Below the pieces are notes generated by a model, which did no database searches, was not told the origin of the DNA, and was given only the letters and a program-made list of their open reading frames with translations. This document shows positions 4,872 to 30,377 of a DNA stretch of 30,377 bases, piece after piece. Location of the stretch: the IMG/VR virus record IMGVR_UViG_2654587686_000023; one strand, written 5' to 3'. The DNA comes from a virus. Taxonomy: Duplodnaviria; Heunggongvirae; Uroviricota; Caudoviricetes. The translations under genes were made by a program, and so were the position numbers. Positions within the stretch are counted from its first letter, which is position 1; each line of letters starts with the position of its first letter.

Positions 4872-5302
4872 CCGTCCAGAAGAAGATATTTTCACTGGCT
4901 GGTATGTCGCCAAAATCCAGCAATATGACAGCAAAGTCTGGCATTAATACAGCATATACAAGCAAAGTTTATCATTTTCTGGTGGTAGGAGCGGATGCCT
5001 TAACTATGTCAGAAATTACGGTCGATGGTGTTAGCGTTGAGAAGGTCGGCGGCTGCGCCAGAGAATTTCTGGTCGTAGATGGCTTTCTCTGCTCGCGTAG
5101 TGACTCCACAAAAACCTTCGTCCACACGCGCGACGTTAACGAAATGAGCGCGATGTATTGTGCATCTGGTGCTTCCAATAGTGAGTTTTCGGAGTCCATA
5201 AAAAAGAGCTTGCCGTTATGCGGCAACACGGTTTATGGTTATAAGGCACCTCATAAAACGGGTGCCGGGATTGGCGTCCTGAAAATTCTGAAGGCGACAT
5301 AT

Positions 5303-5324
5303 GACGCGCCGAGCGTCTTTTTTT
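5303..5324 (+). terminator. Rho-independent terminator (GACGC-GCCGA-GCGTC followed by T7)
   Basis: Perfect 5-bp stem with 5-nt loop followed by seven T residues. Confidence 0.6.
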
Positions 5325-5370: not shown

Positions 5371-5526
5371 CCAGCGCCTTTGTCAATCAATGGTGGCTCA
5401 GGCGGGGGCTTCTTCGGAAGCGCCGGTATCCTTCAGAGCCGGTTACGCCAACCCTGTCTGGGCTACCACCAGCGAAATTGGCGTTTCCGGTGGTAGCGTA
5501 ACCTGCTATCTGAAGGAGGCTGCCAC

Positions 5527-6119: not shown

Positions 6120-6379
6120 ATATCAACTTAATTTATCGTCATCCGTGTGAGCTGGAAATTGAATCATTGCTGGGGCGTGAAGAGCCATATCCAGACACAT
6201 TCACTCCCGCAGATTGCGCGACTGAACGGCTTACCAGAGCGCGCACAGGTCTGGTTCATGTGATGAATGAGATTATTCCCTCGGTGGGAGGGGAACAGGC
6301 GACAGTAATCAATAGCTGGCTACAAAAAGTTACCTCCCTGATAGATATCAGTTTAATCGATGTGGAGAGTGCGAAATGA
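6116..6379 (+). CDS. hypothetical protein (87 aa)
   Basis: ORF with start overlapping upstream stop (ATGA), SD-like GGGGGTGA upstream. Confidence 0.55.
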   Translation: MNINLIYRHPCELEIESLLGREEPYPDTFTPADCATERLTRARTGLVHVMNEIIPSVGGEQATVINSWLQKVTSLIDISLIDVESAK

Positions 6380-7908: not shown

Positions 7909-10651
7909 TCTTATCCGTCAGGTTATCAGTGCGTCTGAAAACAACTGGCCTCATGTGCTGGGCTGCCTGAACATAAATGTCCCTGACTCTCCGCGCCGTC
8001 ATGCTCCCTGCCCTGCATGTGGGGGCAAAGATCGATTCCGGTTCGATGACAACGGGCGCGGTAGCTTCATCTGTAATCAGTGCGGCGCTGGTGATGGGCT
8101 GGATTTAATTAAACGCGTAAATAACTGCGACACAACAGAGGCGGCGCTTCTTGCCGCTGATGTTCTGGGTATTGATTACCGGACAACGGAAACACCAGAA
8201 GCCACCAGCCAGAAACGGGAACAACTGGAAACCGAGCGCCAGCGACGCGAACAGGAGCGCCTGAAAAGGGCAGAGAAGGACGAACAACAAAGACGGGATA
8301 CGTTTTCCCGTCAGTTTGATGACATGCGCAGAAAGGCTGTAAACGGCAAATCTGATTATCTGGTTGCGAAAGGGGTAGGTGATTTTACATTCCCCGTGTT
8401 GCCCGATGGATCTCTGTTGCTGGCGCTGGTGGATAAATCCGGCGCAGTCACAGCAGCACAGACTATTACCTCACATGGTGAAAAAAGACTCCTGACAGGT
8501 TCAGCAAAGCGGGGGGCATATCACGCCATAAACGCACCAGAAACAACACAGAGCATCTTAATCGCAGAAGGGCTGGCAACGGCATTATCTGCCCATTTAA
8601 TTCGTCCAGAGGCGCTGACAGTGGCGGCGATTGATGCCGGGAACCTGTTATATGTCGCCCAGGTACTGCGGGATAAATATCCATCAGCACAAATCATCAT
8701 TGCTGCGGATAACGACCACAGCGAAGGAAGACAAAACACGGGGAGAATAGCAGCAGAAAAAGCAGCTTTATCTGTTTCTGGATGGGTGGCATTACCCCCG
8801 ACAGATCACAAAGCAGACTGGAATGATTACCACCAAAAACACGGCATTAAATGCGCCACAGAAGCGTTCAATAAGTCAATGTACCAACCACAGGGTAATG
8901 GCGTGAAACAGGAGCCACAGACCATTGAGGGAAGCGATTTTAAGGTTATGGATACCGACCCACTGAAACCAAGAATAGAAAGCCGCGAGGATGGTATTTA
9001 TTGGGTATCTCCGAGAGCTGACAGCCAGAGTGGAGAAATCATCAATAACGAAAGCTGGTTATGTTCTCCGTTAAGCGTTATCGGTACTGGCAGAGACGAT
9101 AAAGACCAGTATCTCATTCTTCGCTGGCTGTCGTTTGGTTCTGAAACGCCGACAACCGCTGCCATTCCACTGGCTGATATTGGTGAACGTGAAGGATGGC
9201 GCACACTTAAAGCTGGTGGGGTAAATGTCACGACCAAAAGCAGCCTCAGAGCAATACTGGCAGACTGGCTACAACGCAGTGGCTCTCGTGAATTGTGGCG
9301 TGTTGCTCATGCCACTGGCTGGCAATGCGGAGCGTACATCATGCCTGATGGGGAAATCATCGGAACACCTGAAAATCCTGTGCTGTTCAGCGGGAGAAGC
9401 TCAGCCGCAGCCGGATATACCGTCTCAGGGAGCGCGAAAAGCTGGCGTGATAACGTGGCGCGTCTGGCCTTTGGTAACTATTCAATGATGACCGGGATCG
9501 GCGCAGCACTGGCAGCGCCATTGATTGGGCTGGTGGGCGCTGACGGGTTCGGCATTCATTTCTATGAGCAGTCGAGCGCAGGTAAGACCACCACGGCAAA
9601 CGTGGCGAGCAGCTTATACGGCAACCCTGATTTACTGCGGCTGACGTGGTACGGAACCGCGCTGGGGCTGGCAAATGAAGCCGCCGCCCACAATGACGGA
9701 CTAATGCCGCTTGATGAAGTTGGTCAGGGCGCTGATCCTGTCAGTGTTTCACAGTCTGCCTATGCGTTATTTAACGGTGTAGGGAAACTGCAAGGCGCTA
9801 AAGATGGTGGAAACCGGGATCTAAAACGCTGGCGTACAGTGGCAATCAGCACTGGAGAAATGGATTTAGAAACATTTATCGCTACTTCCGGGCGAAAAAC
9901 CAAAGCCGGGCAACTGGTGCGACTGCTGAATATTCCGTTGAGTAAAGCAGTACGCTTTCACGATTACCAGAACGGAAAACAGCACGCAGACGCACTGAAA
10001 GACGCTTACCAGCATCACCACGGCGCAGCCGGGCGTGAGTGGATTAAATGGCTGGCAGACCACCAGCAACAGGCAATTAAAACTGTTCGTGACTGCGAAA
10101 GCAGATGGAGAAGTCTGATCCCATCCGATTATGGTGAGCAGGTTCACCGTGTAGCCGCGCGATTTGCCATTCTGGAGGCCGCATTGCTGTTAGGCGAGGT
10201 TGTAACAGGCTGGGATGCTCAGACATGCCGTGATGCGATACAGCACAGCTATAACGCATGGTTGCGCGAGTTCGGCACAGGTAACAAAGAACATCAGCAG
10301 ATTATTGAACAAACGGAGGCATTTCTTAATGCCTATGGGCTTAGCCGTTTTGCACCATTTCCATACAGCCCGGCAGATTTGCCCATCAAAGATTTGGCCG
10401 GATACCGTCAGCGTGGAGAACATGACGAAAGCCCAATGATTTTCTACACATTCCCGGCCACATTTGAAAAGGAGATCGCATGTGGTTTCAACGCAAAACA
10501 GTTTGCTGAAGTGTTGAAAAAAGCCGGGATGCTAACCCCACCAAACAGCGGTCGTGGATACCAAAGAAAATCACCACGTATTCAGGGACGACAAATAAAC
10601 GTTTATGTACTCAATTACCAGCCAGGAGATTATAACTCATCTGAAGAATGA
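7892..10651 (+). CDS. P4 alpha-like primase-helicase (zinc-binding primase domain + TOPRIM-like region + D5/DUF927-type NTPase)
   Basis: 919-aa ORF; N-terminal CPACGG...CNQCG zinc-ribbon typical of P4 alpha/bacteriophage primases; Walker A-like SSAGKTT in the C-terminal half; size and position typical for P4-like islands. Confidence 0.85.
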   Translation: MMRNIDLIRQVISASENNWPHVLGCLNINVPDSPRRHAPCPACGGKDRFRFDDNGRGSFICNQCGAGDGLDLIKRVNNCDTTEAALLAADVLGIDYRTTETPEATSQKREQLETERQRREQERLKRAEKDEQQRRDTFSRQFDDMRRKAVNGKSDYLVAKGVGDFTFPVLPDGSLLLALVDKSGAVTAAQTITSHGEKRLLTGSAKRGAYHAINAPETTQSILIAEGLATALSAHLIRPEALTVAAIDAGNLLYVAQVLRDKYPSAQIIIAADNDHSEGRQNTGRIAAEKAALSVSGWVALPPTDHKADWNDYHQKHGIKCATEAFNKSMYQPQGNGVKQEPQTIEGSDFKVMDTDPLKPRIESREDGIYWVSPRADSQSGEIINNESWLCSPLSVIGTGRDDKDQYLILRWLSFGSETPTTAAIPLADIGEREGWRTLKAGGVNVTTKSSLRAILADWLQRSGSRELWRVAHATGWQCGAYIMPDGEIIGTPENPVLFSGRSSAAAGYTVSGSAKSWRDNVARLAFGNYSMMTGIGAALAAPLIGLVGADGFGIHFYEQSSAGKTTTANVASSLYGNPDLLRLTWYGTALGLANEAAAHNDGLMPLDEVGQGADPVSVSQSAYALFNGVGKLQGAKDGGNRDLKRWRTVAISTGEMDLETFIATSGRKTKAGQLVRLLNIPLSKAVRFHDYQNGKQHADALKDAYQHHHGAAGREWIKWLADHQQQAIKTVRDCESRWRSLIPSDYGEQVHRVAARFAILEAALLLGEVVTGWDAQTCRDAIQHSYNAWLREFGTGNKEHQQIIEQTEAFLNAYGLSRFAPFPYSPADLPIKDLAGYRQRGEHDESPMIFYTFPATFEKEIACGFNAKQFAEVLKKAGMLTPPNSGRGYQRKSPRIQGRQINVYVLNYQPGDYNSSEE

Positions 10652-10670: not shown

Positions 10671-10798
10671 AAAGGTGTTGGTTCAGTTGGTTCAGTTGGT
10701 TCAGTTGGTTCAATTTGTAAAGAGTATTGTTTTATAAGGATTTTATTCTTTTTATTGAACCAACACTGAACCAACAACACGGTATTTTGAACCAACAC
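10671..10798. repeat. Iteron cluster A: four tandem GGTTCAGTT units (10680-10715) followed by three inverted TGAACCAACA copies (10756-10798); candidate alpha-binding crr/ori-type site
   Basis: Directly visible tandem and inverted repeats immediately 3' of the primase gene; by analogy with P4 alpha binding short iterons in ori and crr (established for P4, inferred here). Confidence 0.6.
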
Positions 10799-20186: not shown

Positions 20187-20293
20187 GTTGGTTCAAAATG
20201 AGTTGATGTTGGTTCAATATTTTAGAAAAAACACAATAAAAACAACGCTCTTTACAAATTGAACCAACTGAACCAACTGAACCAACACCTTTT
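20187..20293. repeat. Iteron cluster B: two TGTTGGTTCA copies (20187-20216) plus three inverted AACTGAACC-type units (20258-20284); inverted partner of cluster A
   Basis: 20248-20293 is the reverse complement of 10671-10724 apart from one 9-bp unit (both arms include AAAGGTGTT and CAATTTGTAAAGAG). Confidence 0.7.
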
Positions 20294-22303: not shown

Positions 22304-22322
22304 TCCTATTATCGGCACCATT
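22304..22322. repeat. attR core: second copy of TCCTATTATCGGCACCATT
   Basis: Exact 19-bp repeat of the thrW 3' end (1428-1446). Confidence 0.85.
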
Positions 22323-22925
22323 AAGAAAATCAATAACTTAGCTTAACTTCTCTAAGAAATTGTATCTTCTGTTATCACTTACAAACGCCTATACGTTGTT
22401 ATGGGCTTTGGTAGTGTAACACGTATGGGCGAGTAGTTCCCAGGCTCAACCTCGTAACAAGTTCCTTTGAAGCTGGAAGACGTGCCACCGTCTCTAAACC
22501 TTCTACCAAAACTCTTAGCAAGATGTTCCACACCTGGCGCGGTGTCCAATGATGCCACACGTCGTGAGACGTTGCAGAGGATAAACAGGCTAAATGATGG
22601 GAAGAGTTTTAAGTGCAATAGTGGATTAAAGCCCACCTCTTCAAAACCTAACTTGATCGGGAAAGAATCAAGCTCTAGCACGGTTTCGTCCACCGGAGTA
22701 CAACGGGTGCCTGATAAGAGAAGAACTGCTAAGACTTCATAGCTTTTGTGAAAAAGCCCTTTTTAGTGGATACGCCTACGGCGCTTATTTTTTGGTATAA
22801 CCATCAAAGGCGCTTTATGGCTCCTATTGTCTTGAAAATGTATCTTTACTTGTATTGTGTTTTATGCGTAGTCTCCCTGTGTAGTATGTAACTTGTTAAT
22901 TTTCATATGAATACAGAGGCACACG

Positions 22926-23084
22926 ATGAAAAACATTGCAGCTATAAAACGTAATAACCGCAAGATTCACGCTCGTAAGTTCCTGTCTACGCCAGAAGGA
23001 AAAGCCTGGTTAGAGCGTAAACAGAGAGAGAACGAAGAAAGAAAACTCCTTAGTGAGTTGAAATGGCTTAGAGAGGATTTCTGA
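22926..23084 (+). CDS. small basic hypothetical protein (52 aa)
   Basis: Short ORF below track cutoff with GAGG 7 nt upstream of ATG; Lys/Arg-rich. Confidence 0.3.
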   Translation: MKNIAAIKRNNRKIHARKFLSTPEGKAWLERKQRENEERKLLSELKWLREDF

Positions 23085-23380
23085 AAATCTCCAGAACGCA
23101 ACAGGACGCATTCTAACGCTGTTTTCATTGCTTGGTATAGGGATGTATAGGTGATGTGTGTTTAATGCGTCTGTGAGCTTGTTTTGTGCCTTATTTTGCA
23201 TTTTCATAATGCAGAAGAGAACACGGAAAGCCTTAAAATTAATTATTGGGGTATTTAAGGCTATTTTTAGGGTATTTAAGGGTATTAAACTTGATTTAAT
23301 TGATTAAAATATAAACAGATAGTTCTGTATCTTATTGATTTATAAGGTTATTTTTAAATAAAGATAAATAAAAAATAAAT

Positions 23381-23430
23381 AGCCATAAATAGCCATAAAT
23401 AGCTATAAATACATCTAAATACATATGAAT
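23381..23430. repeat. Five tandem 10-bp units (AGCCATAAAT x2, AGCTATAAAT, ACATCTAAAT, ACATATGAAT)
   Basis: Helical-period (10 bp) direct repeats visible in sequence; further GGTATTTAAGG-like repeats at about 23245-23300. Confidence 0.6.
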
Positions 23431-23525
23431 CCCCTCCCTTATGGCTAGATTGCGAGAGGTGCTTAACGCGATTTTCAGCGCCCCCCGATCTGGAAAATCC
23501 AGAATCCCCAAATATCAAGGAGGCA

Positions 23526-24065
23526 TTACGCCTCCTCTTCTTCCTTCTTAATTCGCTGTACCGTTGAAGGAGCAACATTAAAGCTCTCGGCGGTTTTACG
23601 CACTGACAGGCCATCAGAAAGGGCTTTCTTTATACCTTCTCTATCTACTGCTTTTCCATTACCACGCTTTGTAGGATTGACGGCTTGCGCTTCTCGTTTA
23701 CGCTCTAACATCAGTTCACGTTCACACGTTGCAACTGCCGACAACATCGTAAGCATCATTTTTCCCATCGCGCTTGTAATGTCTGCAATGATCCCTTCTT
23801 TATGAAATCGAACAATTACACCTCGATTATTAAGTTGTTCCACTAAGGCAAGAATGTCTAAGGTGTTACGCCCTAAACGGTCGAGAGAGTGCACGTGTAA
23901 GGTGTCGCCTTCTCTCAGATAGGATAAACACGCCTGCAATCCTGGACGGTTAGTGTCTTTACCTGACAGCTTATCTTCAAAGACTTTATCAAGCGTTACT
24001 CCTGCAAGCTGGCGATCAGTGTTCTGATCTACAGTGCTCACACGCTTATAACCGATATTGCTCAT
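23526..24065 (-). CDS. small serine recombinase (resolvase/invertase family, 179 aa)
   Basis: N-terminal IGYKRVSTVDQNTDRQ with the catalytic-serine context typical of resolvase/invertase-type serine recombinases; short C-terminal DNA-binding region; size matches small resolvases. Confidence 0.85.
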   Translation of the reverse strand: MSNIGYKRVSTVDQNTDRQLAGVTLDKVFEDKLSGKDTNRPGLQACLSYLREGDTLHVHSLDRLGRNTLDILALVEQLNNRGVIVRFHKEGIIADITSAMGKMMLTMLSAVATCERELMLERKREAQAVNPTKRGNGKAVDREGIKKALSDGLSVRKTAESFNVAPSTVQRIKKEEEEA

Positions 24066-24079
24066 AAAATCCCCTTAAT

Positions 24080-24190
24080 GTATCGATTTGGCACTACTCC
24101 AATGCAAATGAGTATATCGTATTCATTTGGTCTGTTTCAAGCCTTATAGGTACGGAATATTACACGATTTAGATGTATTCATTTGGTATG
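24080..24190. promoter_or_regulatory. Repeat cluster upstream of recombinase gene: GTATTCATTTGGT at 24119-24131 and 24176-24188 plus related GTATCGATTTGGC at 24080-24092; candidate res/operator
   Basis: Three related 13-bp motifs directly 5' of the recombinase start codon; resolvases usually act at multi-subsite res sites next to their gene. Confidence 0.4.
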
Positions 24191-24674
24191 CCTAATGGAT
24201 ACACAGGGGAATAGATTAAATAGTGTTCTGTTTATACAGGTTTATTTGTTAGATCAACAATTTGGCATTTCTAAACAGATGTTTGAACGTTGCCAAATGT
24301 CTTGACAACACAAGAAAAGGGCTTGCTATGCCACGCATTACACGAAATAAGGCTGTAAAAACAAAATAAATTTTAAAATTTGCACAAACGAGAAAACTCA
24401 TTCAGAAACAAGCAGAACAATTTTTAGCCAACAATTTCTGATGGTGCTCTGTAAGCCGCACTACACAAGGCTTTGCGAAAGTGATGTAAAAGTGAAGAAA
24501 GTAAGAATTGCACTTTTAAGCTACTTTTCATTGAATTTTTAGTATGGAATTACACAGGAATAAGTTAGGGATATTCTATGATTTACACAGGGAATATAGG
24601 GGATTATGGCACACACATAGAAAGGCATTACACAGAGTGCTATGTGATGATTGGTAGTAACGGTAGTTCACTAT

Positions 24675-24784
24675 GAGCTAGGGGGTAGTTCACTATGAGC
24701 TAGGGGGTAGGTCATAGTGAGCTAGGGGGTAGGTCACTGTGAGCTAGGGGGTAGGTCATAGTGAGCTAGGGGGTAGGTCACTGT
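24675..24784. repeat. Five tandem 22-bp iterons GAGCTAGGGGGTAG(G/T)TCA(C/T)(T/A)GT with a partial leading copy from about 24655; candidate plasmid/phage replication origin
   Basis: Contiguous 22-bp direct repeats without spacers, immediately followed by an extremely AT-rich stretch (24795-24880, including (TA)n). Confidence 0.75.
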
Positions 24785-24794
24785 GAACTACAAT

Positions 24795-24880
24795 AAGACT
24801 ATTAATAAAACTATATTAGATTATTAATTAGATCATAATAATAATATTCTTTATATCTATATATATATATGATCTTTTGC
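24795..24880. other. AT-rich putative DNA unwinding element adjacent to the iterons
   Basis: Nearly pure A/T run with TATATATATATA; iteron + AT-rich arrangement is standard for theta-type origins. Confidence 0.5.
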
Positions 24881-25868
24881 CTTCCGGCGTTAGCTTCACT
24901 CTCTGGCAAGCAGCCTTACTCCGCTACCTTTGGGCTTCGTGGCTGGCCCGTTCCGCTCACACCGAAAGCAAAGCGTTACTTTCTTCGTGTAACTTCGTTG
25001 GCGATAACGCCCACGAAGAAATCTATTGCGCTGTGCGCAGAAGAGTAATCACCTAACCAATCATACTGATTGCTTATGTGTTAACTCTAACTCTTAATTC
25101 CACTTCTACATTCTGTAGTTGTGTAATTACTCGAAGAGAGAGCGGCTAAAGCTCAATTACACTCTGCTTTCCTCGTGTAATTTCACTAAGCCTCAATACA
25201 ATTCCACTTTCTACATTTAATAACTCTCGTTATTCTCTGTAGTTGTGTAATTGTTTTCGGTGGAAAAGCCAGAGGCGACACCGAAAGAGAATTCTGATCT
25301 TATTAATCTTATCTATCTTAGTTATCTTACTTATCTACTTTATTATTAATAATAGCTTTATAAGCTCTGTGTAGCTCTTTGACGCAAGAAACAGCATTCA
25401 GGAAGGGAATCACCTTAGAAAAGTGTTCTTTGCGTCATAATGTGTTTTATGAAGGATTCAGAGGTGTTTCATAACAGGAATGTATAGAGGATACTTTAAT
25501 TAATTAAAAATAAGGGGTCTAAATGCTTCTCTAATAGCATTAAGCAGGGTAGGGAATGGAAACGCATTGCCTACATATAATAAACTCACTACAGGGCTTT
25601 ACAGGGCGTTTTATAAAGTGACTCTCTATCTTATATCTACCATTACCTTTTCATATACCTAACAAATACAAAATAAGCCCCTTAAATAAGCCTCTGGCGA
25701 GCTAAACAGCCATTACATAAGGGAATGTATTGCTTTTATCAAAACCTCGTTAGAACGCGTTTTAGAGCGTTTTAGCGGATAATGAAGAATAGCACCACAC
25801 AGGAGAGCACGAATTGCTAAGAAAAAATGTAAGTGCATGAAAAAGATCGGATTTTTTGTGAAAAGGTA

Positions 25869-25896
25869 TTGACAAATGTTTCTTTATATGTAATAA
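25869..25896 (+). promoter_or_regulatory. sigma70-like promoter (TTGACA - 16 bp - TAATAA)
   Basis: Consensus -35 and near-consensus -10 about 110 nt upstream of the 26008 gene. Confidence 0.5.
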
Positions 25897-26007
25897 TAGG
25901 TATTAGAGGGACAGAAAACATTCTTCTCTAAATAATCAAAATCAATGCACTTTGAAGCCGTCAGGCTTGCAAGGTGTTTTTTCTTTTAACTGAATAAGGA
26001 GTTTTTT

Positions 26008-26196
26008 ATGAAATGGTTTACACCGAAACACGTCGTAGAGGCATTTAAAAAAGGTGAGCTTACACGCCATCAAGTAGTAATGAATCGTAATATGGCAAGG
26101 AGTCGAGGTTATCCAGAGCGAGCAGCTTGCTTCAATGAAGCACTCAAGATTATTGATGAACTAAGAAAAAATGAAAAAGAATCTGAAACAGAGTAA
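26008..26196 (+). CDS. small hypothetical protein (62 aa)
   Basis: ORF with AAGGAG SD. Confidence 0.55.
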   Translation: MKWFTPKHVVEAFKKGELTRHQVVMNRNMARSRGYPERAACFNEALKIIDELRKNEKESETE

Positions 26197-26215
26197 AGAA
26201 TAGAAGGAGAAAACT

Positions 26216-26383
26216 ATGAGCGAAACTAAGAAACCAATTCCGCGCACTTACCTACACGTTGACCCTGAAATCTTCAAGGTTTTATTTGCTGAAGCCAAGA
26301 AAAGGCAAATTATGGTCAGTGATTTGATGTTAGAAATCATTACTGAAGCAGCAGAGAACATCAAACAAAAAAAGGGTAAGTGA
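26216..26383 (+). CDS. ribbon-helix-helix-like DNA-binding protein (55 aa; CopG/ParG-like)
   Basis: Short ORF below track cutoff, AAGGAGA SD; TYLHVDPEIFKVLFAEAKKRQIMVSDLMLEII fits beta-alpha-alpha RHH pattern. Confidence 0.5.
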   Translation: MSETKKPIPRTYLHVDPEIFKVLFAEAKKRQIMVSDLMLEIITEAAENIKQKKGK

Positions 26384-26434
26384 TCCTCATTCACTTTAGT
26401 AGCGCATTAAGCGTGATTTATAAGGAGATTTTTA

Positions 26435-27124
26435 ATGATTAATCAACTAACTTTTACAAAACACTATGACACGTTTGATAATGTATCAAAGATTTATTCT
26501 GATAAATTCCCTCAAGGAAAAGATTTAGATCTATTACATATTGTGCTTTATTTTCGATTCCTTAGTTATCAGGAAAACAACCTTAATTGTTATGAAAGTC
26601 ACGAAACATTAGCTAAGATTTTTAAGTCTTCAGCGTCAACAATTAAACGTAAGATAAACGATCTTAAAGAGATGGGATTATTAGAAACATCCCCACATCC
26701 TGATCCGTATATTTCATCTTTGATTTACAATGCTCTCCCTCTCACAGATGCACATATTACTCCCCCAGGAGAATCATCACTCTCTGATCTTTCTGAGGCA
26801 GAAGAAGCACAGGAACAACCTAAAGGCCATAAACAGCCTTCTTTTGATGTTCTTGATGATTGGGATGCGCCTTTGCCGTGGGAGACGGAAGAAACACCTG
26901 TTTCATCAAGTGAAAAGGTAGCTAATGATAATGAGGAGGATGTGTTAGAGAATTTTGCATCTCTTATTATCAAGCAGAAGAATACCAGAACAGGAGGAGC
27001 ATCATTTATAGAATTTGCAACATCGTTAGCCTATAAGCACAGGTTAAAGCTACCAAATGGTATTGAGGCATATTTTTCTAAGAATTACCCAAATGTGTAT
27101 GATGACTTTGATATTCCATTTTAA
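26435..27124 (+). CDS. winged-helix DNA-binding protein with acidic central region (229 aa); candidate replication initiator/primosomal-type protein
   Basis: AAGGAG SD; N-terminal HTH (ETLAKIFKSSASTIKRKINDLKEMGLLE); lies about 1.6 kb from the iterons. Function inferred. Confidence 0.55.
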   Translation: MINQLTFTKHYDTFDNVSKIYSDKFPQGKDLDLLHIVLYFRFLSYQENNLNCYESHETLAKIFKSSASTIKRKINDLKEMGLLETSPHPDPYISSLIYNALPLTDAHITPPGESSLSDLSEAEEAQEQPKGHKQPSFDVLDDWDAPLPWETEETPVSSSEKVANDNEEDVLENFASLIIKQKNTRTGGASFIEFATSLAYKHRLKLPNGIEAYFSKNYPNVYDDFDIPF

Positions 27125-27135
27125 TAAGGAGGGTT

Positions 27136-27414
27136 ATGATTCAATATTTAGTAAAAAATCAAGTAGACAGAATTCAGTGTAATGACACAGGAAAACGCAT
27201 CTACGAAACACTTGCTTACCTCTATAAAGGAAAGCCAACACCGCTAAAATATAGCGATGTGTTACATCGAGCAGGGTGCTCTGAAGATGGTTTAAAATTC
27301 TGGCTTAAACAGCTATCAAACTTCGGTGTTATAGAAATTAAAGAATTATCTTTCTCTACATTCAATCTCAAAAGACTAGATAAAGAAATAGAATTCATCT
27401 ATTCCACTCTCTAA
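27136..27414 (+). CDS. small winged-helix-like DNA-binding protein (92 aa)
   Basis: AAGGAGG SD; putative HTH YSDVLHRAGCSEDGLKFWLKQLSNFGVIE. Confidence 0.55.
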   Translation: MIQYLVKNQVDRIQCNDTGKRIYETLAYLYKGKPTPLKYSDVLHRAGCSEDGLKFWLKQLSNFGVIEIKELSFSTFNLKRLDKEIEFIYSTL

Positions 27415-27543
27415 AATCTCTCTATGTAATTAAAATATAAAAGGAAAACATTATTATGATAGTAGCTATGTATTGGTTATTGTTCTTTCTCACGTTAGAA
27501 ACATATTTCGGGGTGTTTTCCTTTAAAAGAAAAGGAAAAATAA

Positions 27544-27954
27544 ATGGCAAAAAGAAAAAACAATGTTGTTAAGAAGATCGGTGATTCAGCTTCTCTTCTA
27601 AGTAAACCTAAATCTATTCTAAGACGTAAAGACTTTAAAGAGCTAGTTACGCTCACCAAGCATAATAGCGCCCCTGGCGAATGGAAAACAGAGATCATAG
27701 AACATTCTCCCTCTGTGCCTTGTGGAGATGAATATATCGCATTACAAGAAATCTTATCTTCAACACCTGGCGTATTCTGGAAACCTAGAAAAAGAAAAGA
27801 GTATATTGTTGATAGCTCTGATTTACGCAAATACCAGATTTTAGGATTTGAAGATTATAATCACTACGTTGGTTATCTCGCCACCAATGGCCTAAATAAT
27901 TTAGTTCCTGAATTCCAGATTCTGGATAATGTTGATCACTATGGAGACTTTTAA
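27544..27954 (+). CDS. hypothetical protein (136 aa), basic N-terminus
   Basis: ORF with AAGGA SD. Confidence 0.55.
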   Translation: MAKRKNNVVKKIGDSASLLSKPKSILRRKDFKELVTLTKHNSAPGEWKTEIIEHSPSVPCGDEYIALQEILSSTPGVFWKPRKRKEYIVDSSDLRKYQILGFEDYNHYVGYLATNGLNNLVPEFQILDNVDHYGDF

Positions 27955-27955
27955 T

Positions 27956-28294
27956 ATGAACAAAAACACGTATGACACAATTTACTCACTAATTAATTAT
28001 TATGAGGATGATTACCTCCTGCCTTTAAACCGTGCTGAACTTGAAGCATACAAAGAAAACACGCCAGCGGCACTAAATGAGGCGTTTAAACACTGGGATT
28101 TAGCTGTGAATGCCTTTGAGATGCTCTGTAAGCGTGTAGAGATGCTCTGTAAGAGTGAGAACGCATATCTGACAGCGGATCAGATATGGGAGCTATCAAA
28201 CTGGATAGAAGGTATTTACTCGGACGTTCGCTATGTAGGAGACGGACTTGTTGAACTAGCTCAACGCTTAGGCGCTGCTATCACAGAAGAATAA
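27956..28294 (+). CDS. hypothetical protein (112 aa from ATG 27956; track ORF starts 27929)
   Basis: ATG at 27956 has GGAG 9 nt upstream and begins 1 nt after the previous stop; contains an in-frame 21-bp tandem duplication (EMLCKRV/EMLCKSE). Confidence 0.5.
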   Translation: MNKNTYDTIYSLINYYEDDYLLPLNRAELEAYKENTPAALNEAFKHWDLAVNAFEMLCKRVEMLCKSENAYLTADQIWELSNWIEGIYSDVRYVGDGLVELAQRLGAAITEE

Positions 28295-28323
28295 AAAAAG
28301 CAACAAAAAAGTTGTAAAATATC

Positions 28324-28352
28324 TTGACATTTCATCTATTGTATGTTAATAT
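28324..28352 (+). promoter_or_regulatory. Strong sigma70 promoter (TTGACA - 17 bp - TAATAT)
   Basis: Consensus -35 and 5/6 -10 with optimal spacing in the intergenic region upstream of the head-gene block. Confidence 0.6.
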
Positions 28353-28484
28353 AATTATATAGGGTGATTATTTTTCCTTTGTTGGTTCGATATTAAAAAT
28401 TCTTCCTGTCATTAAAGGGGAGTAAAATCTCCGCTCCCCGCTTCTCCTCCTCCTTAAGTGTCATTATTACCTCTTTTTTCCTTT

Positions 28485-28514
28485 GTTATGCATACATCTT
28501 GGAGTATGCATAAC
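28485..28514. promoter_or_regulatory. Perfect 10-bp inverted repeat GTTATGCATA-N10-TATGCATAAC; candidate operator or RNA hairpin
   Basis: Seen in sequence within the leader between promoter and terminator. Confidence 0.45.
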
Positions 28515-28543
28515 ATAGGGTAATTACATAGGTATGAGTTAAT

Positions 28544-28576
28544 AAAAGGCGGCTTTAAATGCTGCCTTTTATTTTG
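28544..28576 (+). terminator. Intrinsic terminator-like hairpin (AAAAGGCGGC-TTTAAAT-GCTGCCTTTT + ATTTTG)
   Basis: About 10-bp stem with one mismatch, flanked by A-run and T-run, about 215 nt downstream of the strong promoter and about 60 nt upstream of the next gene. Confidence 0.5.
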
Positions 28577-28637
28577 CCCGTTATGCAACTTAAAAGTTGT
28601 ATTTCTTACTTTAAACAAGGTAACAAGGTTTATATAA

Positions 28638-28850
28638 ATGTTGTTCTTAAATGATAAAGAGCAAATCATCAAGTATAAAGATGAAATGCTGAAAATTAAT
28701 CCACAAATTACCGAAATGGTAGCTAAATACGCTGGGTGTTCTGTAGAGGAAGTAGAAAGATGTGTTGAAAAATATTTTTCTCCTTCTTCTCCGTCTACAC
28801 CTTCCCTTAATGAATTAATCAAATTAAAAGCTAAGGAGATTACTAAATGA
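28638..28850 (+). CDS. small hypothetical protein (70 aa)
   Basis: ORF; weak SD; stop overlaps next start (ATGA). Confidence 0.45.
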   Translation: MLFLNDKEQIIKYKDEMLKINPQITEMVAKYAGCSVEEVERCVEKYFSPSSPSTPSLNELIKLKAKEITK

Positions 28851-29209
28851 TTATTGATTTAGACGCTCTTTTTCCAAGTCGAAAGACGTTTACAGATCTG
28901 GTGGCTTATTGTACTGATCCGTTTGCCTCTGTAGAAAGCAAGGTTTTTGCTTCTCTTCCTGCTGATGTTGAATGCGGAGACTTGATCACCAGCACTGGCG
29001 CTAAATATGAATCAGGAGATGATATCTATGTTGTTATGAGTGAATTTGTAACGGCTGGAGACAACAAGCCTGTAGATGTGCTACGTAGCAATGCTGGGCT
29101 TGTATGCATCAAAGCTGATGCCCTGAATGCTGTAAGTGAAGCAGCAAAAACAGCATTAATTAAAAAAGGCTTCCAGCTTGAAGGCTTTAATACGGTTTTC
29201 ACTTCTTAA
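28847..29209 (+). CDS. possible head decoration protein (lambda gpD-like position and size, 120 aa)
   Basis: AAGGAG SD; about 110-120 aa protein immediately upstream of a gpE-like capsid gene, as in lambda D-E; assignment by synteny and size only. Confidence 0.5.
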   Translation: MIIDLDALFPSRKTFTDLVAYCTDPFASVESKVFASLPADVECGDLITSTGAKYESGDDIYVVMSEFVTAGDNKPVDVLRSNAGLVCIKADALNAVSEAAKTALIKKGFQLEGFNTVFTS

Positions 29210-29227
29210 TAAAAGGAATAATAATAA

Positions 29228-30256
29228 ATGATTCTAGGTAATGATTACGTTGATTTAGCCCCTTTGTTCTCTGCGCATAGCACTAGAAACTATCTGCTCT
29301 CTACCCTCGACTTCACTGATCCGGTGGGCGTTAGTTCTCATAAAGTAGCTGTTTCCCAGCTTGTCGAAAGCAACGAATCTCTGTTCAACAAAGAAACCTC
29401 TCGTTTCTCTTCTGAACACAATGTTACTAAGCGAGAACAAGGTAAAGAATGGCTGATTGAAATCCCGTATTTTCTTCGTGAAGATGTGATCCGTCCTTCT
29501 GATGTTCAAGGCAAACGTAAGCCAGGCACTGATTTTCAGGAAACACTCACTGATATCTATGCTGACTATGTTGCTAAACACCACGTAGCGTATCAGCGTA
29601 CAAAAGAGAGCGTGTTGGCTGCATCTCTGTTTAGCGGTAAAACTTACACGCCTAAAACTGATGATGTTCTTATCGAATGGGGCAAGCTGTTTAACGTATC
29701 AGCTATGAAAGCCACTGTGAACGCTTCCAGCACTGACACCACGAAGATTTTTAAAGAATTTGATCAGATTGCTACTGACATTATCGAAAAAGCACAAAGC
29801 CAGGCGGCTGCTGTAGAGCGTATTGTTGTTTTCTGTAAGCCGGAAGCCTTCTCTGCAATTCGATTCTCTGCTGGTATGGCAAACGCATTCCAGTATGTAA
29901 GCCCACTGGAAGAGGGAAACGTTGTGTATCAGCGTCGTGACCTGCTACCGGGGGTGACAGCGTTCACTATTCCAGGAACTAACATTGATGTTATTAAACT
30001 GGTAGATCCGCTACACCTTGCACATATGACCGCTGACGCTGTAGCCGTGCCTAAATTCGCTAAAGGCTCTAACGTCTACCAGGCCATCTATGGGGCGGCT
30101 TCCAGCACTTTTGAACTGATTAATACCGCTCCTGCTGAGGTGTACAGCTACAGCTATGAATCTTCTCGTGGTGATGCTGTTAACGTTGTTACAGAGAATA
30201 GCCAGATGGTTGTAAACCACGGTGTAGGCTTCTCCGTTCAAATCACTGTTAAATAA
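29228..30256 (+). CDS. probable major capsid protein, lambda gpE-like (342 aa)
   Basis: AAGGA SD; length almost identical to lambda gpE (341 aa); recalled local similarity (RIVVFCKPEAFSAIRFS vs gpE NIIVFDPKGWALFRSF; C-terminal GFSVQITVK vs gpE EFVSVQLA). Confidence 0.55.
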   Translation: MILGNDYVDLAPLFSAHSTRNYLLSTLDFTDPVGVSSHKVAVSQLVESNESLFNKETSRFSSEHNVTKREQGKEWLIEIPYFLREDVIRPSDVQGKRKPGTDFQETLTDIYADYVAKHHVAYQRTKESVLAASLFSGKTYTPKTDDVLIEWGKLFNVSAMKATVNASSTDTTKIFKEFDQIATDIIEKAQSQAAAVERIVVFCKPEAFSAIRFSAGMANAFQYVSPLEEGNVVYQRRDLLPGVTAFTIPGTNIDVIKLVDPLHLAHMTADAVAVPKFAKGSNVYQAIYGAASSTFELINTAPAEVYSYSYESSRGDAVNVVTENSQMVVNHGVGFSVQITVK

Positions 30257-30377
30257 TATTTTAACGTGTAATAGAGGCGTGGCGCTGATGAATCCCCTAA
30301 TGATTTTGGTAAAAATCATTAAGTTAAGGTGGATACACATCTTGTCATATGATCAAATGGTTTCGCGAAAAATCAAT

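Follow-up and report, generated by a model that had tools for sequence, protein, structure and literature searches.

Locus and Island Setting

The DNA analyzed here (the window, 30,377 nucleotides, a viral record) belongs, from position 22323 to its end, to an island of ~12 kb integrated at tRNA-Thr, with an att repeat (22304-22322) as the left island boundary. Within this island, positions 24066 to 26007 lie between the gene for a small serine recombinase and an operon whose products include a putative replication initiator. As had been noted from the sequence, this region is ORF-free: it contains no ORF of at least 60 codons, and of the 256 genomes that match it over its full length, most carry no RefSeq annotation here. 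Two 59-residue ORFs (starting at 24869 and 24877) were considered as hidden small genes and rejected, since they are broken by indels of 1-2 nt in relatives; an ORF across 25713-25838 was likewise rejected as a gene because a 10-bp copy-number change crosses it. The aligned pieces of the region are co-linear across 22 loci. As a whole, the region has no match to phage DNA at E<=1e-5, and Rfam finds nothing within it at gathering score; at E<=5, the only Rfam match is a chance-level one to cyano_tmRNA that lies outside the region (23731-23860).

Of 5426 complete E. coli chromosomes, 751 (~14%, about one in seven) carry relatives of the island, and islands of identical architecture occupy four chromosomal sites. 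Carriers include the strains NCTC10973, O104:H4 2011C-3493, BEN2908, and NC101. A plasmid setting is not borne out. The island is bounded by an att repeat, related sequence is chromosomal in 1163 of 1165 places, and a search of 72,556 plasmid records (PLSDB) gave only 2 matches, both weak and one of them to a 4.9-Mb record; on these grounds a plasmid origin was rejected. A scan of genome contigs for relatives outside Escherichia gave one locus, that of Escherichia sp. E1V33, and in a protein search the best 120 matches listed were all from Escherichia, with 95-100% identity.

The structural genes of the island point to phage phi92. Its tube-initiator protein is ~60% identical to phi92 gp135, its tape measure is similar to gp134, and its capsid is similar to gp124. 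No terminase gene was found in the island, and thus a helper must package it. These features suggest that the island is not a plasmid but a so far undescribed parasite of large lytic phages, probably a satellite of phi92-like lytic myoviruses; we infer the identity of the helper from structural-gene homology only. The literature searched contained nothing relevant on the island, on its protein accessions, or on satellites of phi92-like or T5-like phages. The island carries phi92 homologues of capsid, tape-measure, and tube-initiator genes, a combination not encountered in the satellite literature searched. Neither phi92 nor the terminal repeat of T5 encodes homologues of its small proteins.

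The Left Flank: a Serine Recombinase and a Putative res Site

The left neighbor of the region is the gene for the recombinase (23526-24065, minus strand), a protein of 179 residues of the resolvase/invertase type. It matches Pfam Resolvase (E=1.1e-33) and HTH_7, its best PHROG is 125, 'DNA invertase' (E=1.3e-54), and its relatives are annotated as 'recombinase family protein'. Repeat analysis reveals that five half-sites of the GTATTCATTTGG type, some direct and some inverted, cluster at 24078-24203. The cluster holds a 12+2+12 palindrome, CAAATGAGTATA-TC-GTATTCATTTGG (24105-24130), and overlaps a minus-strand sequence (24140-24111) that looks like a promoter of the recombinase gene. In a class-B relative (L003), a different repeat, GTGTAGTGAT, is present at the equivalent place, beside a diverged recombinase.

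We propose that 24078-24203 is the res site of the recombinase, at which multimers formed during replication would be resolved and the recombinase gene would be autoregulated. The arrangement resembles that of Tn3 and γδ res, where a small serine recombinase is likewise encoded directly downstream of inverted-repeat subsites that overlap the recombinase promoter; the candidate subsites of the island span ~125 bp. A res site would have two or three dimer-binding subsites within ~120 bp, and the island has five related half-sites, which include one 12+2+12 palindrome. Unlike the Tn3 and γδ resolvases, the island enzyme has best profile matches that name it an invertase. An invertible switch of the Hin/Gin/Cin type was rejected, as there is no second copy of the candidate sites and no inverted segment in the 22 loci. 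A sequence with a hix/gix-like look, TTATCAAAACCTCG, proved to be the IRD'-like element described below. The partition or centromere-like site that had been suggested for the region also finds no support: none of the ten neighboring ORFs encodes a ParA/ParM/TubZ NTPase or a centromere-binding domain, and the repeats nearest the recombinase resemble a res site.

The Right Flank: Promoter and Leader

At the other end of the region is a σ70 promoter, TTGACA-17-AATAAT, with an extended -10 TG (25869-25897, plus strand; 11/12 match). Class-B islands keep the -35 and the TG-extended -10; the sequence between them differs. The predicted leader folds into a first hairpin (25903-25931) and then a hairpin plus U-run that resembles an intrinsic terminator (25947-25987), 20 nt before the first ORF of the operon (RBS 25996-26001, ATG 26008). 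In 7 variants, the 13-bp terminator stem is invariant and its loop varies (GTCA, CAAGA, or CAACAA); because the stem never varies, covariation lends the terminator no support. The leader (25903-25987) thus has the features expected of a promoter-proximal intrinsic terminator, and these are conserved in relatives. The strong σ70 promoter would drive the operon encoding the initiator, and its transcripts would meet the leader terminator. With this conserved terminator in place, the operon would stay largely off until read-through, the trigger for which is presumably helper infection.

Iterons, an A+T-rich Block, and a Putative Cognate Initiator

The core of the region consists of six direct repeats of 22 bp at 24662-24790 (TRF 5.9 copies, score 191-214), which the original prediction had correctly recognized as iterons. 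These repeats, GGTAGGTCACTGTGAGCTAGGG, designated type T1, are all in the same orientation (plus strand), and their 22-bp period keeps them in helical register. The AT-rich stretch described earlier is also there: 81 bp at 24791-24871 are 88% A+T, with a (TA)n run and 2 GATC sites, and this block is presumed to be a DNA-unwinding element. In relatives, each iteron type or cassette comes with its own A+T block. Upstream of the iterons, the three TTACACAG-type motifs are found where they had been reported (24549-24637, plus strand; starts at 24549, 24582, and 24627); class-B relatives conserve just the first of them. No DnaA box (TTATNCACA, at <=1 mismatch) and no IHF consensus (WATCAANNNNTTR) is present in 24066-26007; many iteron origins, though not all, have such sites for host factors.

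The likely partner of the iterons is Rep, a 229-residue, initiator-like wHTH protein (26435-27124, plus strand) with an N-domain of type R1. Rep contains a Pfam HTH_36 domain and matches PHROGs 270, 428, 391, and 678 (replication initiation or O-like; best E=2.6e-9 overall) as well as PHROG 186, a DnaD-like loader. These profile matches, moderate in strength, suggest that Rep is an initiator. A single-sequence AlphaFold model of Rep (pLDDT 41) was unusable. The NCBI name for the protein is 'transcriptional regulator'. Among its relatives, N- and C-domains are mosaic.

The type of iteron beside the A+T block and the type of the Rep N-domain correspond in 28/28 related islands, loci that are not phylogenetically independent. 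The pairing is one-to-one, five iteron types with five N-domain types, and T1, T2, T4, and T5 are each found on both of two unalignable spacer classes. In islands with two or three cassettes (L015, L017, L009, and L004), Rep matches the cassette nearest the spacer. Non-cognate iterons also occur upstream as orphan single copies, arranged in a fixed order. Because iteron type and DNA-binding-domain type co-vary in every case, the earlier assignment of the region as a replication origin is supported, although what the covariation itself proves is binding specificity and not replication. An origin of the iteron type would have at least three tandem repeats of 17-22 bp in helical register, an adjacent A+T element, and a matched initiator encoded in cis, all of which are present here. 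The distance from the iterons to the initiator gene, 1.6 kb, is unusual.

The Spacer between the Proposed Origin and the Promoter

Hairpins are found next to the A+T block, in the class-A spacer, whose first segment (24872-25085) is G+C-richer, hairpin-rich, and nearly invariant. It includes the hairpin at 24980-25021, the arms of which, TTTCTTCGTG (24980-24989) and CACGAAGAAA (25012-25021), form the inverted repeat that had been pointed out. This segment is near-invariant in 15 loci, and since frameshifting indels occur within this near-invariant sequence, it is non-coding. A family-wide motif, AAATCTATTGCGCTGTGCGC (25019-25038), is present in every class, in a single copy per island and always on the same strand.

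GTGTAAT/ATTACAC motifs do recur downstream of the iterons, as the original prediction held, but two of the positions assigned to them, 25137 and 25168, are wrong; the copies lie at 24987 (GTGTAAC, not GTGTAAT), 25121, 25156, 25175, and 25245. ATTACAC is enriched, with 16 exact matches in the window versus 3.5 expected for the whole 30 kb, a count reached by 0/100 shuffles, and 8 of the 16 fall in 24159-25251. The TTACAC enrichment is confined to one backbone class and absent from class-B spacers; thus, a family-wide protein-binding array was rejected. The motifs were also rejected as DnaA boxes, there being none at <=1 mismatch.

The sequence CACCGAAAG, thought to delimit two diverged units of ~150 bp, is indeed repeated (24960-24968 and 25279-25287), but no such units exist: the copies are 319 bp apart, in the stems of different hairpins. 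What is present is a partial tandem duplication (25086-25252; units at about 25086-25128 and 25196-25252) that carries GTGTAAT/ATTACAC motifs. Its duplicated segment is ~40-55 nt, with 17 nt exact (25112-25128 and 25236-25252, spacing 124), and the intervening ~70 nt are not duplicated. Among relatives, the spacer varies by indels only at 25086-25235, and one relative (L002) has a single duplication unit. A second A+T-rich stretch (25296-25365, 80% A+T) contains 9-bp repeats, ATCTTATTT, of variable copy number.

The conservation of this non-coding DNA allows another explanation, one that is tenable but unlikely: most of the region, especially the spacer (24872-25600) and/or the conserved blocks a and b described below, would specify one or more structured ncRNAs, and the origin would occupy only ~250 bp. 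These could act in immunity or against the helper, or could represent a long leader that is processed as in P4. Such RNAs would account for a spacer at least as conserved as the coding flanks, yet unable to code, and for several stable hairpins with changes confined to their loops, a pattern of stem invariance and loop variation that is only suggestive of ssi or ncRNA elements. The promoter-leader-terminator unit would itself give an RNA of ~85 nt, and in leader hairpin 1 there is, by eye, one apparent A-U to G-C exchange. However, the leader contains no pair that RNAalifold recognizes as compensatory, the fold z-scores (-1.9, -2.6, and -0.3, the first two for the plus and minus strands of 24872-25085) are modest, no Rfam family is matched even at E<=5, and there is no consensus promoter upstream of the spacer. 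The two spacer classes are mutually unalignable, so that covariation provides no support for structured RNA there.

Conserved Blocks and Similarities to Phage Genome Ends

Two non-coding blocks are kept in all backbone classes. Block a (24420-24565) contains two hairpins and retains 78-92% identity where its flanks are unalignable; the changes fall in the hairpin loops. Block b (25596-25868) is located upstream of the main promoter. Against phage DNA, block a and the spacer gave chance-level matches only, even at relaxed thresholds.

Within block b is an IRD'-like element (25732-25775) built of 10-bp units, CGTTAGAACG / CGTTTTAGAG / CGTTTTAG. Over 45 nt, it is identical at 41/45 positions (91%) to KPN4, a T5-like phage of Klebsiella (E=5e-6 against 2.3 Gb), and at 23/28 positions to T5 9350-9377. 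It is matched by 320 phage records, mostly T5-like, and the matches fall in the terminal-repeat/iss region wherever the record was annotated or inspected. Thus the sole strongly significant phage DNA match is to T5-like and not phi92-like phages. Among islands the number of 10-bp units varies, and the end of the array is always 92-94 bp from the -35. The T5 injection-stop element is composed of IRD', a 52-bp spacer, IRC', and paired DnaA boxes (Davison 2020, bioRxiv 10.1101/866236). Like IRD' in the iss region of T5-like phages, the island element has the architecture ATCAAAAC..CGTTAGAAYGCG..TTTTAG..CGTTTTAG and long ORF-free, repeat-rich surroundings. Unlike in T5, it lies 93 bp upstream of a promoter, the similarity ends at 45 nt, and the structural genes that accompany it resemble those of phi92 rather than those of T5.

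A second similarity is a weak lead. The 22-nt sequence AATTAAAAATAAGGGGTCTAAA (25502-25523), which is class-A specific, matches 21/22 positions of the ORF-free right-end region of phi92 (147334-147355), ~0.9 kb before the annotated terminal repeat, with marginal significance (E=0.004 against 98.6 kb of phi92). By eye, TATTGCGCT resembles the initial 30 nt of the phi92 terminal repeat over 9-11 nt, which is too short to be accepted as a helper packaging signal.

These similarities, together with the conserved blocks, bring up a further explanation that is compatible with the presence of an origin, though rather improbable: the blocks would be helper-directed cis signals from phage genome ends, either packaging/cleavage sites or sites for early helper proteins. 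The IRD'-like array, the phi92-like 22-mer, and the TGCGCTGTGCGC motif are the candidates. In T5-like phages, the 45-nt match falls where the iss region starts, the position that Davison describes as IRD'; the 22-mer matches an ORF-free phi92 end; one invariant 20-nt motif persists per island in spacers that are otherwise unalignable; and an island devoid of terminase requires helper packaging. However, IRD' has no assigned function even in T5 (bioRxiv 10.1101/866236), and the island lacks what defines the T5 element: DnaA boxes in a pair, an IRC' partner, and a spacer of 52 bp. In addition, E. coli phi92-like phages have no IRD-like element at the BLAST level, the 22-mer is limited to class A and to marginal significance, and the IRD'-like element could equally be a site for a host factor.

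A more far-reaching idea, which we regard as speculative and improbable when taken as a whole, is that the region is the interface of these satellites with virulent phages. It would join an origin with swapped iterons and initiator heads to cis signals copied from the ends of lytic phages, namely the IRD'-like array, the 22-mer of the phi92 end region, and the invariant TGCGCTGTGCGC site. Through these signals, the island would detect early proteins of the helper and/or have its DNA cut and packaged by it.

A Probable Control Hub with an Iteron Origin at Its Core

We consider it probable that the region is the cis-acting control hub of the ~12-kb integrated island, itself probably a satellite of phi92-like myoviruses, and that an iteron origin forms its core. 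The lambda-O-like winged-helix Rep would bind the six iterons (24662-24790) and thereby open the adjacent 88% A+T block (24791-24871); the excised circle would then replicate theta-type, started by the host or helper replisome. Constrained non-coding DNA makes up the hairpin-rich spacer of ~0.7 kb and both conserved blocks; it may have roles in priming or replisome loading, packaging, or helper sensing. What the analysis shows is the anatomy of the region, its conservation, the covariation of iterons and initiator, and the phage homologies; replication as such, resolution, attenuation, and dependence on a helper are inferred.

It is very unlikely that the iterons form instead an operator or 'handcuffing' array, or a centromere-like, wHTH-bound site, concerned with repression, incompatibility, or segregation and not with initiation: the NCBI name of Rep, a covariation that demonstrates cognate binding only, and upstream orphan non-cognate iterons in a fixed order, which could titrate the proteins of co-resident islands, would fit such a site, but each array abuts its own A+T-rich block, the profile matches of Rep are to phage replication initiators and DnaD-like loaders, there is no ParA/ParB/ParM-type gene, the only strong promoter is 1.1 kb away from the array, and a centromere is unnecessary for an integrated element.

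Relation to Known Replication Modules

The ori of lambdoid phages consists of 4 iterons and an A+T-rich region, which in lambda are located inside the O gene. The N-terminal domain of lambda O sets ori specificity, and its C-terminal domain recruits the helicase loader. The proposed island origin is similar in having tandem ~20-bp iterons beside an A+T-rich block, and its initiator is likewise small, with an N-terminal wHTH, a swappable C-terminal domain, 'O-like' PHROG matches, and an N-domain type that co-varies with iteron type among relatives. Unlike in lambda, the island ori would be 1.6 kb upstream of the initiator gene, separated from it by a promoter and a conserved non-coding spacer; the island has no recognizable P-like loader; and alternative iteron cassettes, with orphan copies, are stacked in tandem.

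Replication modules of other satellites include the rep-ori of SaPIs and PICIs and the ori/crr of P4, used with the alpha protein. The Vibrio PLE has RepA and an iteron ori in a non-coding region (PMC7145576). Like these elements, the island is integrated and ~12 kb in size, encodes its own putative initiator with a matching, proposed iteron origin, and probably depends on a helper for virions. In the case of PLE, the helper is also a lytic myovirus, and the non-coding regions are large as well. Unlike these satellites, it lacks a Pri/Rep helicase, an alpha primase-helicase, and a RepA_N domain, and unlike in the SaPIs, its ori is not immediately 3' of rep. With iteron plasmids (pSC101, P1, F, and R6K), the island shares direct repeats (of 22 bp) that stay in helical phase, an A+T-rich element next to them, and, close by, a proposed function in multimer resolution; it differs from these plasmids in being chromosomally integrated and in having no DnaA boxes or IHF site, no Rep_3-type initiator, and no partition genes.

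Implications

The origin itself is of a familiar kind. The region would be where replication of the island, and probably its induction, is decided. Five iteron cassettes combined with five initiator heads, over two unrelated spacers, constitute a natural specificity experiment, and the pairs of iteron and initiator head could be put to direct use in orthogonal replicons. The IRD'-like element provides a link to the iss repeats of T5, at a fixed distance upstream of a promoter and in a small, genetically tractable context, and the function of the T5 injection-stop region has been open for decades. If the region is indeed an interface with virulent phages, the island element would offer a way to approach what the IRD/iss repeats do in T5, and a very common, previously undescribed family of E. 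coli satellites would be exploiting virulent phages.

Probable iteron origin and its predicted initiator

The region between 24066 and 26007 contains no ORF of 60 aa or more, as the original prediction held, and its 22-bp iterons are recovered by Tandem Repeats Finder as 5.9 copies at 24662-24790. Set in register, these form six iterons, GGTAG(G/T)TCA(C/T)(T/A)(G/A)TGAGCTAGGG. They directly adjoin an 81-bp A+T block (24791-24871), whose content of 88% A+T confirms the A+T-rich stretch seen earlier. The ORF-free region lacks DnaA boxes and an IHF site, and its GATC sites are not clustered. A 229-aa protein encoded at 26435-27124 (plus strand) contains an HTH_36 winged helix, and its PHROG matches (E=2.6e-9 at best) are to initiators of phage replication, O-like proteins, and DnaD-like loaders.

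Comparison of 34 related loci reveals that the array adjoining the A+T block is of five unrelated types, T1 (GGTAGGTCACTGTGAGCTAGGG), T2 (CCCCCACAGAATTCTGTTAGACA), T3 (TACCCCTATCAAnnCTGA), T4 (ACCTAGGAAATGAGTTCC), and T5 (TGTAACGAnAnGTTACA), and that the N-terminal domain of the initiator likewise falls into five unrelated types. The iteron type nearest the spacer matches the N-domain type in 28 of the 28 loci in which both could be read. The spacer of about 0.7 kb that separates iterons and gene belongs to one of two unalignable classes, A (that of the window) and B, and both classes are found with each of the iteron types T1, T2, T4, and T5. Thus, the pairing has outlived recombination of the intervening DNA, which argues for functional coupling rather than mere linkage. 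In addition, each iteron cassette comes with its own A+T block. Together, the covariation, the dedicated A+T blocks, and the phasing and orientation of the iterons towards the A+T block would be the hallmark of an iteron origin served by a lambda-O-like initiator, an assignment that is well supported. Of the "origin/partition" function originally proposed, the origin stands on comparative evidence and the partition site has no support; nor has a plasmid setting.

In some islands (such as L015 and L017), two or three complete cassettes, each of iterons plus A+T block and differing in specificity, are stacked in tandem, and in most islands non-cognate iterons survive as single orphan copies in the fixed order T5-T1-T2-T3-T4 (iteron regions of L015, L017, L002, and L009). 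Such stacks and orphans may stem from an exchange of cassettes or from cross-talk between islands resident together. The initiator-like proteins are themselves mosaics whose N-terminal DNA-binding and C-terminal domains are swapped independently; the L009 initiator is 65% identical to a protein of type T4 and 59% identical to the window protein.

Spacer and conserved blocks

In 15 class-A loci, 24880-25085 and 25236-25600 are almost invariant, and the longest ORFs of the spacer are broken by indels of 1-2 nt. The class-A spacer is therefore under constraint yet does not code for protein, and the few changes within its several stable hairpins lie in loops. Also present in the region, as originally predicted, are motifs of the TTACACAG type, the paired CACCGAAAG, and the inverted repeat formed by TTTCTTCGTG and CACGAAGAAA. 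ATTACAC is clearly enriched, with 8 of the 16 matches in the window lying inside 1.1 kb versus 3.5 expected over the whole window. The "two diverged ~150-bp units" shrink to a duplicated segment of only 40-55 nt with a spacing of 124 bp. The original observation was largely right.

The only motif common to both spacer classes, AAATAnTnTTGCGCTGTGCGC, is found as a single copy in each island, always in the same orientation (25019-25038 in the window), and two further blocks, a (24420-24565) and b (25596-25868), are kept in all classes. Rfam returned no match for the spacer, this motif, or either block. Possible roles include priming or replisome loading beside the unwinding element, packaging, regulation, or an ncRNA.

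Promoter and leader

The sole strong consensus promoter in the region, TTGACA-17-AATAAT with TG, lies at 25869-25897; its hexamers are kept in class-B islands, and the sequence between them differs. In the predicted fold of the leader, a small hairpin spans 25903-25931, and a 13-bp hairpin together with the UUUUUUCUUUU that comes after it occupies 25947-25987, 20 nt upstream of the first ORF. The terminator stem is identical in seven sequence variants with loops of varying sequence and length, and RNAalifold found no compensatory pairs in the leader. We infer that this hairpin is a promoter-proximal terminator that would hold the rep operon low until induced read-through, or else yields a short leader RNA.

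Recombinase end

From the start of the recombinase gene to 24203 there are five GTATTCATTTGG-like half-sites in both orientations, including a 12+2+12 palindrome (24105-24130), and the cluster overlaps a promoter-like site for the recombinase. Class-B islands have a diverged recombinase and another repeat in the equivalent position. The cluster resembles a resolvase res site, which would suit a replicon needing multimer resolution. An invertible switch is unlikely, since none of 22 loci contains an inverted segment.

Phage-end-like motifs

Within block b, GCTTTTATCAAAACCTCGTTAGAACGCGTTTTAGAGCGTTTTAG (25732-25775) matches 320 phage records, mostly T5-like as judged from genome size, the closest being Klebsiella phage KPN4 (41/45; E=5e-6 against 2.3 Gb). 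In these phages the element stands at the beginning of the long terminal-repeat stretch that has no ORFs. The match in phage T5 (9350-9377) is within the annotated injection-stop signal, with more copies at 6272-6291 and 5278-5299; these positions correspond to the IRD/IRD' repeats treated by Davison (bioRxiv 10.1101/866236). In the islands, the element is built of 10-bp units whose number differs, and in every case 92-94 bp separate the near end of the array from the -35 hexamer. However, the companions of IRD' in phage T5 (paired DnaA boxes, IRC', and the 52-bp spacer) are absent around the island element, which is thus a shared module and not iss. A weaker match (21/22 nt) joins 25502-25523 of the class-A spacer to phi92, in whose ORF-free right end the matching stretch lies some 0.9 kb ahead of the terminal repeat. 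Either sequence could be a target of helper proteins, a packaging signal, or a host-factor site.

By eye, the "spacer" of the T5-type IRD'spacerIRC' (T5 9411-9430; KPN4 about 2755-2775) contains a near-perfect LexA-box-like palindrome, CTGTATAAATATACAG, and the end regions of T5 and phi92 contain repeated, Fur-box-like AATGA(T/G)AATCATT motifs.

The host island

The window begins with proA and tRNA-Thr (thrW), whose 19-bp 3' end, TCCTATTATCGGCACCATT (1428-1446), has a second direct copy at 22304-22322. There are therefore two elements in tandem, a prophage-like element of about 21 kb (integrase, 1610-2824) and the island, from 22323. The first element also contains Rfam matches to isrK and C4 antisense RNA, P1/P7-type immunity RNAs (5246-5323 and 5386-5473), and perfect 9-bp tandem repeats, GTTGGTTCA (x4, 10677-10712) and its reverse complement TGAACCAAC (x2, 10756-10776, and x3, 20260-20286), in inverted arrays about 9.6 kb apart.

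Of 5426 complete E. coli genomes, 751 have related DNA in the chromosome (as do 1163 of the 1165 places in all), and such DNA is essentially absent from plasmid records and sequenced phages. A full-length copy of the region is present in 256 of the complete genomes, most of which leave it without annotation. Annotated relatives are about 12 kb long and constant in gene order: small hypothetical genes, a minus-strand serine recombinase (179-183 aa), the gene-free stretch (1.5-2 kb), two tiny ORFs, the HTH protein (about 190-240 aa), several genes of no assigned product, genes for a major capsid protein, a protein of about 610 aa and a "baseplate" protein, and, at the far end, a tyrosine integrase. 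Four chromosomal sites are used for integration: thrW, the interior of srsR, a tRNA-Gly, and the vicinity of yecR.

The product labelled "baseplate" is a tube initiator of the Dit type with about 60% identity to gp135 of phi92-like myoviruses, the 610-aa protein resembles gp134, the tape measure of phi92 (E=1.5e-22), and the capsid distantly matches phi92 gp124. Since the island (window 22323-30377; in relatives, L001 10256-22591 and L003 9870-22700) has these late genes but lacks a terminase, a portal, and a tail tube, it resembles, and probably is, a satellite of phi92/phAPEC8-like lytic myoviruses. A literature search found no account of it, and such a satellite is apparently undescribed. 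An IS10 RNA-OUT match (30330-30377) runs off the window end directly after the capsid gene; IS10 has probably split this copy or cut it short.

Overall, the ORF-free region is likely to be the cis-acting control hub of the island, combining an iteron origin, a res-like site, and a promoter with a leader terminator. Confidence is higher for the reading of the repeats as iterons bound by a cognate initiator beside an unwinding element, and lower for a role as res site or attenuator. An iteron origin plus initiator, a res site, and a regulated promoter are known kinds of elements. The novelty lies in how they are arranged and in the element that hosts them: iteron cassettes are stacked as modules, the non-coding spacer is long and constrained, and motifs resembling phage ends are present, all within an apparently undescribed satellite of lytic phages.
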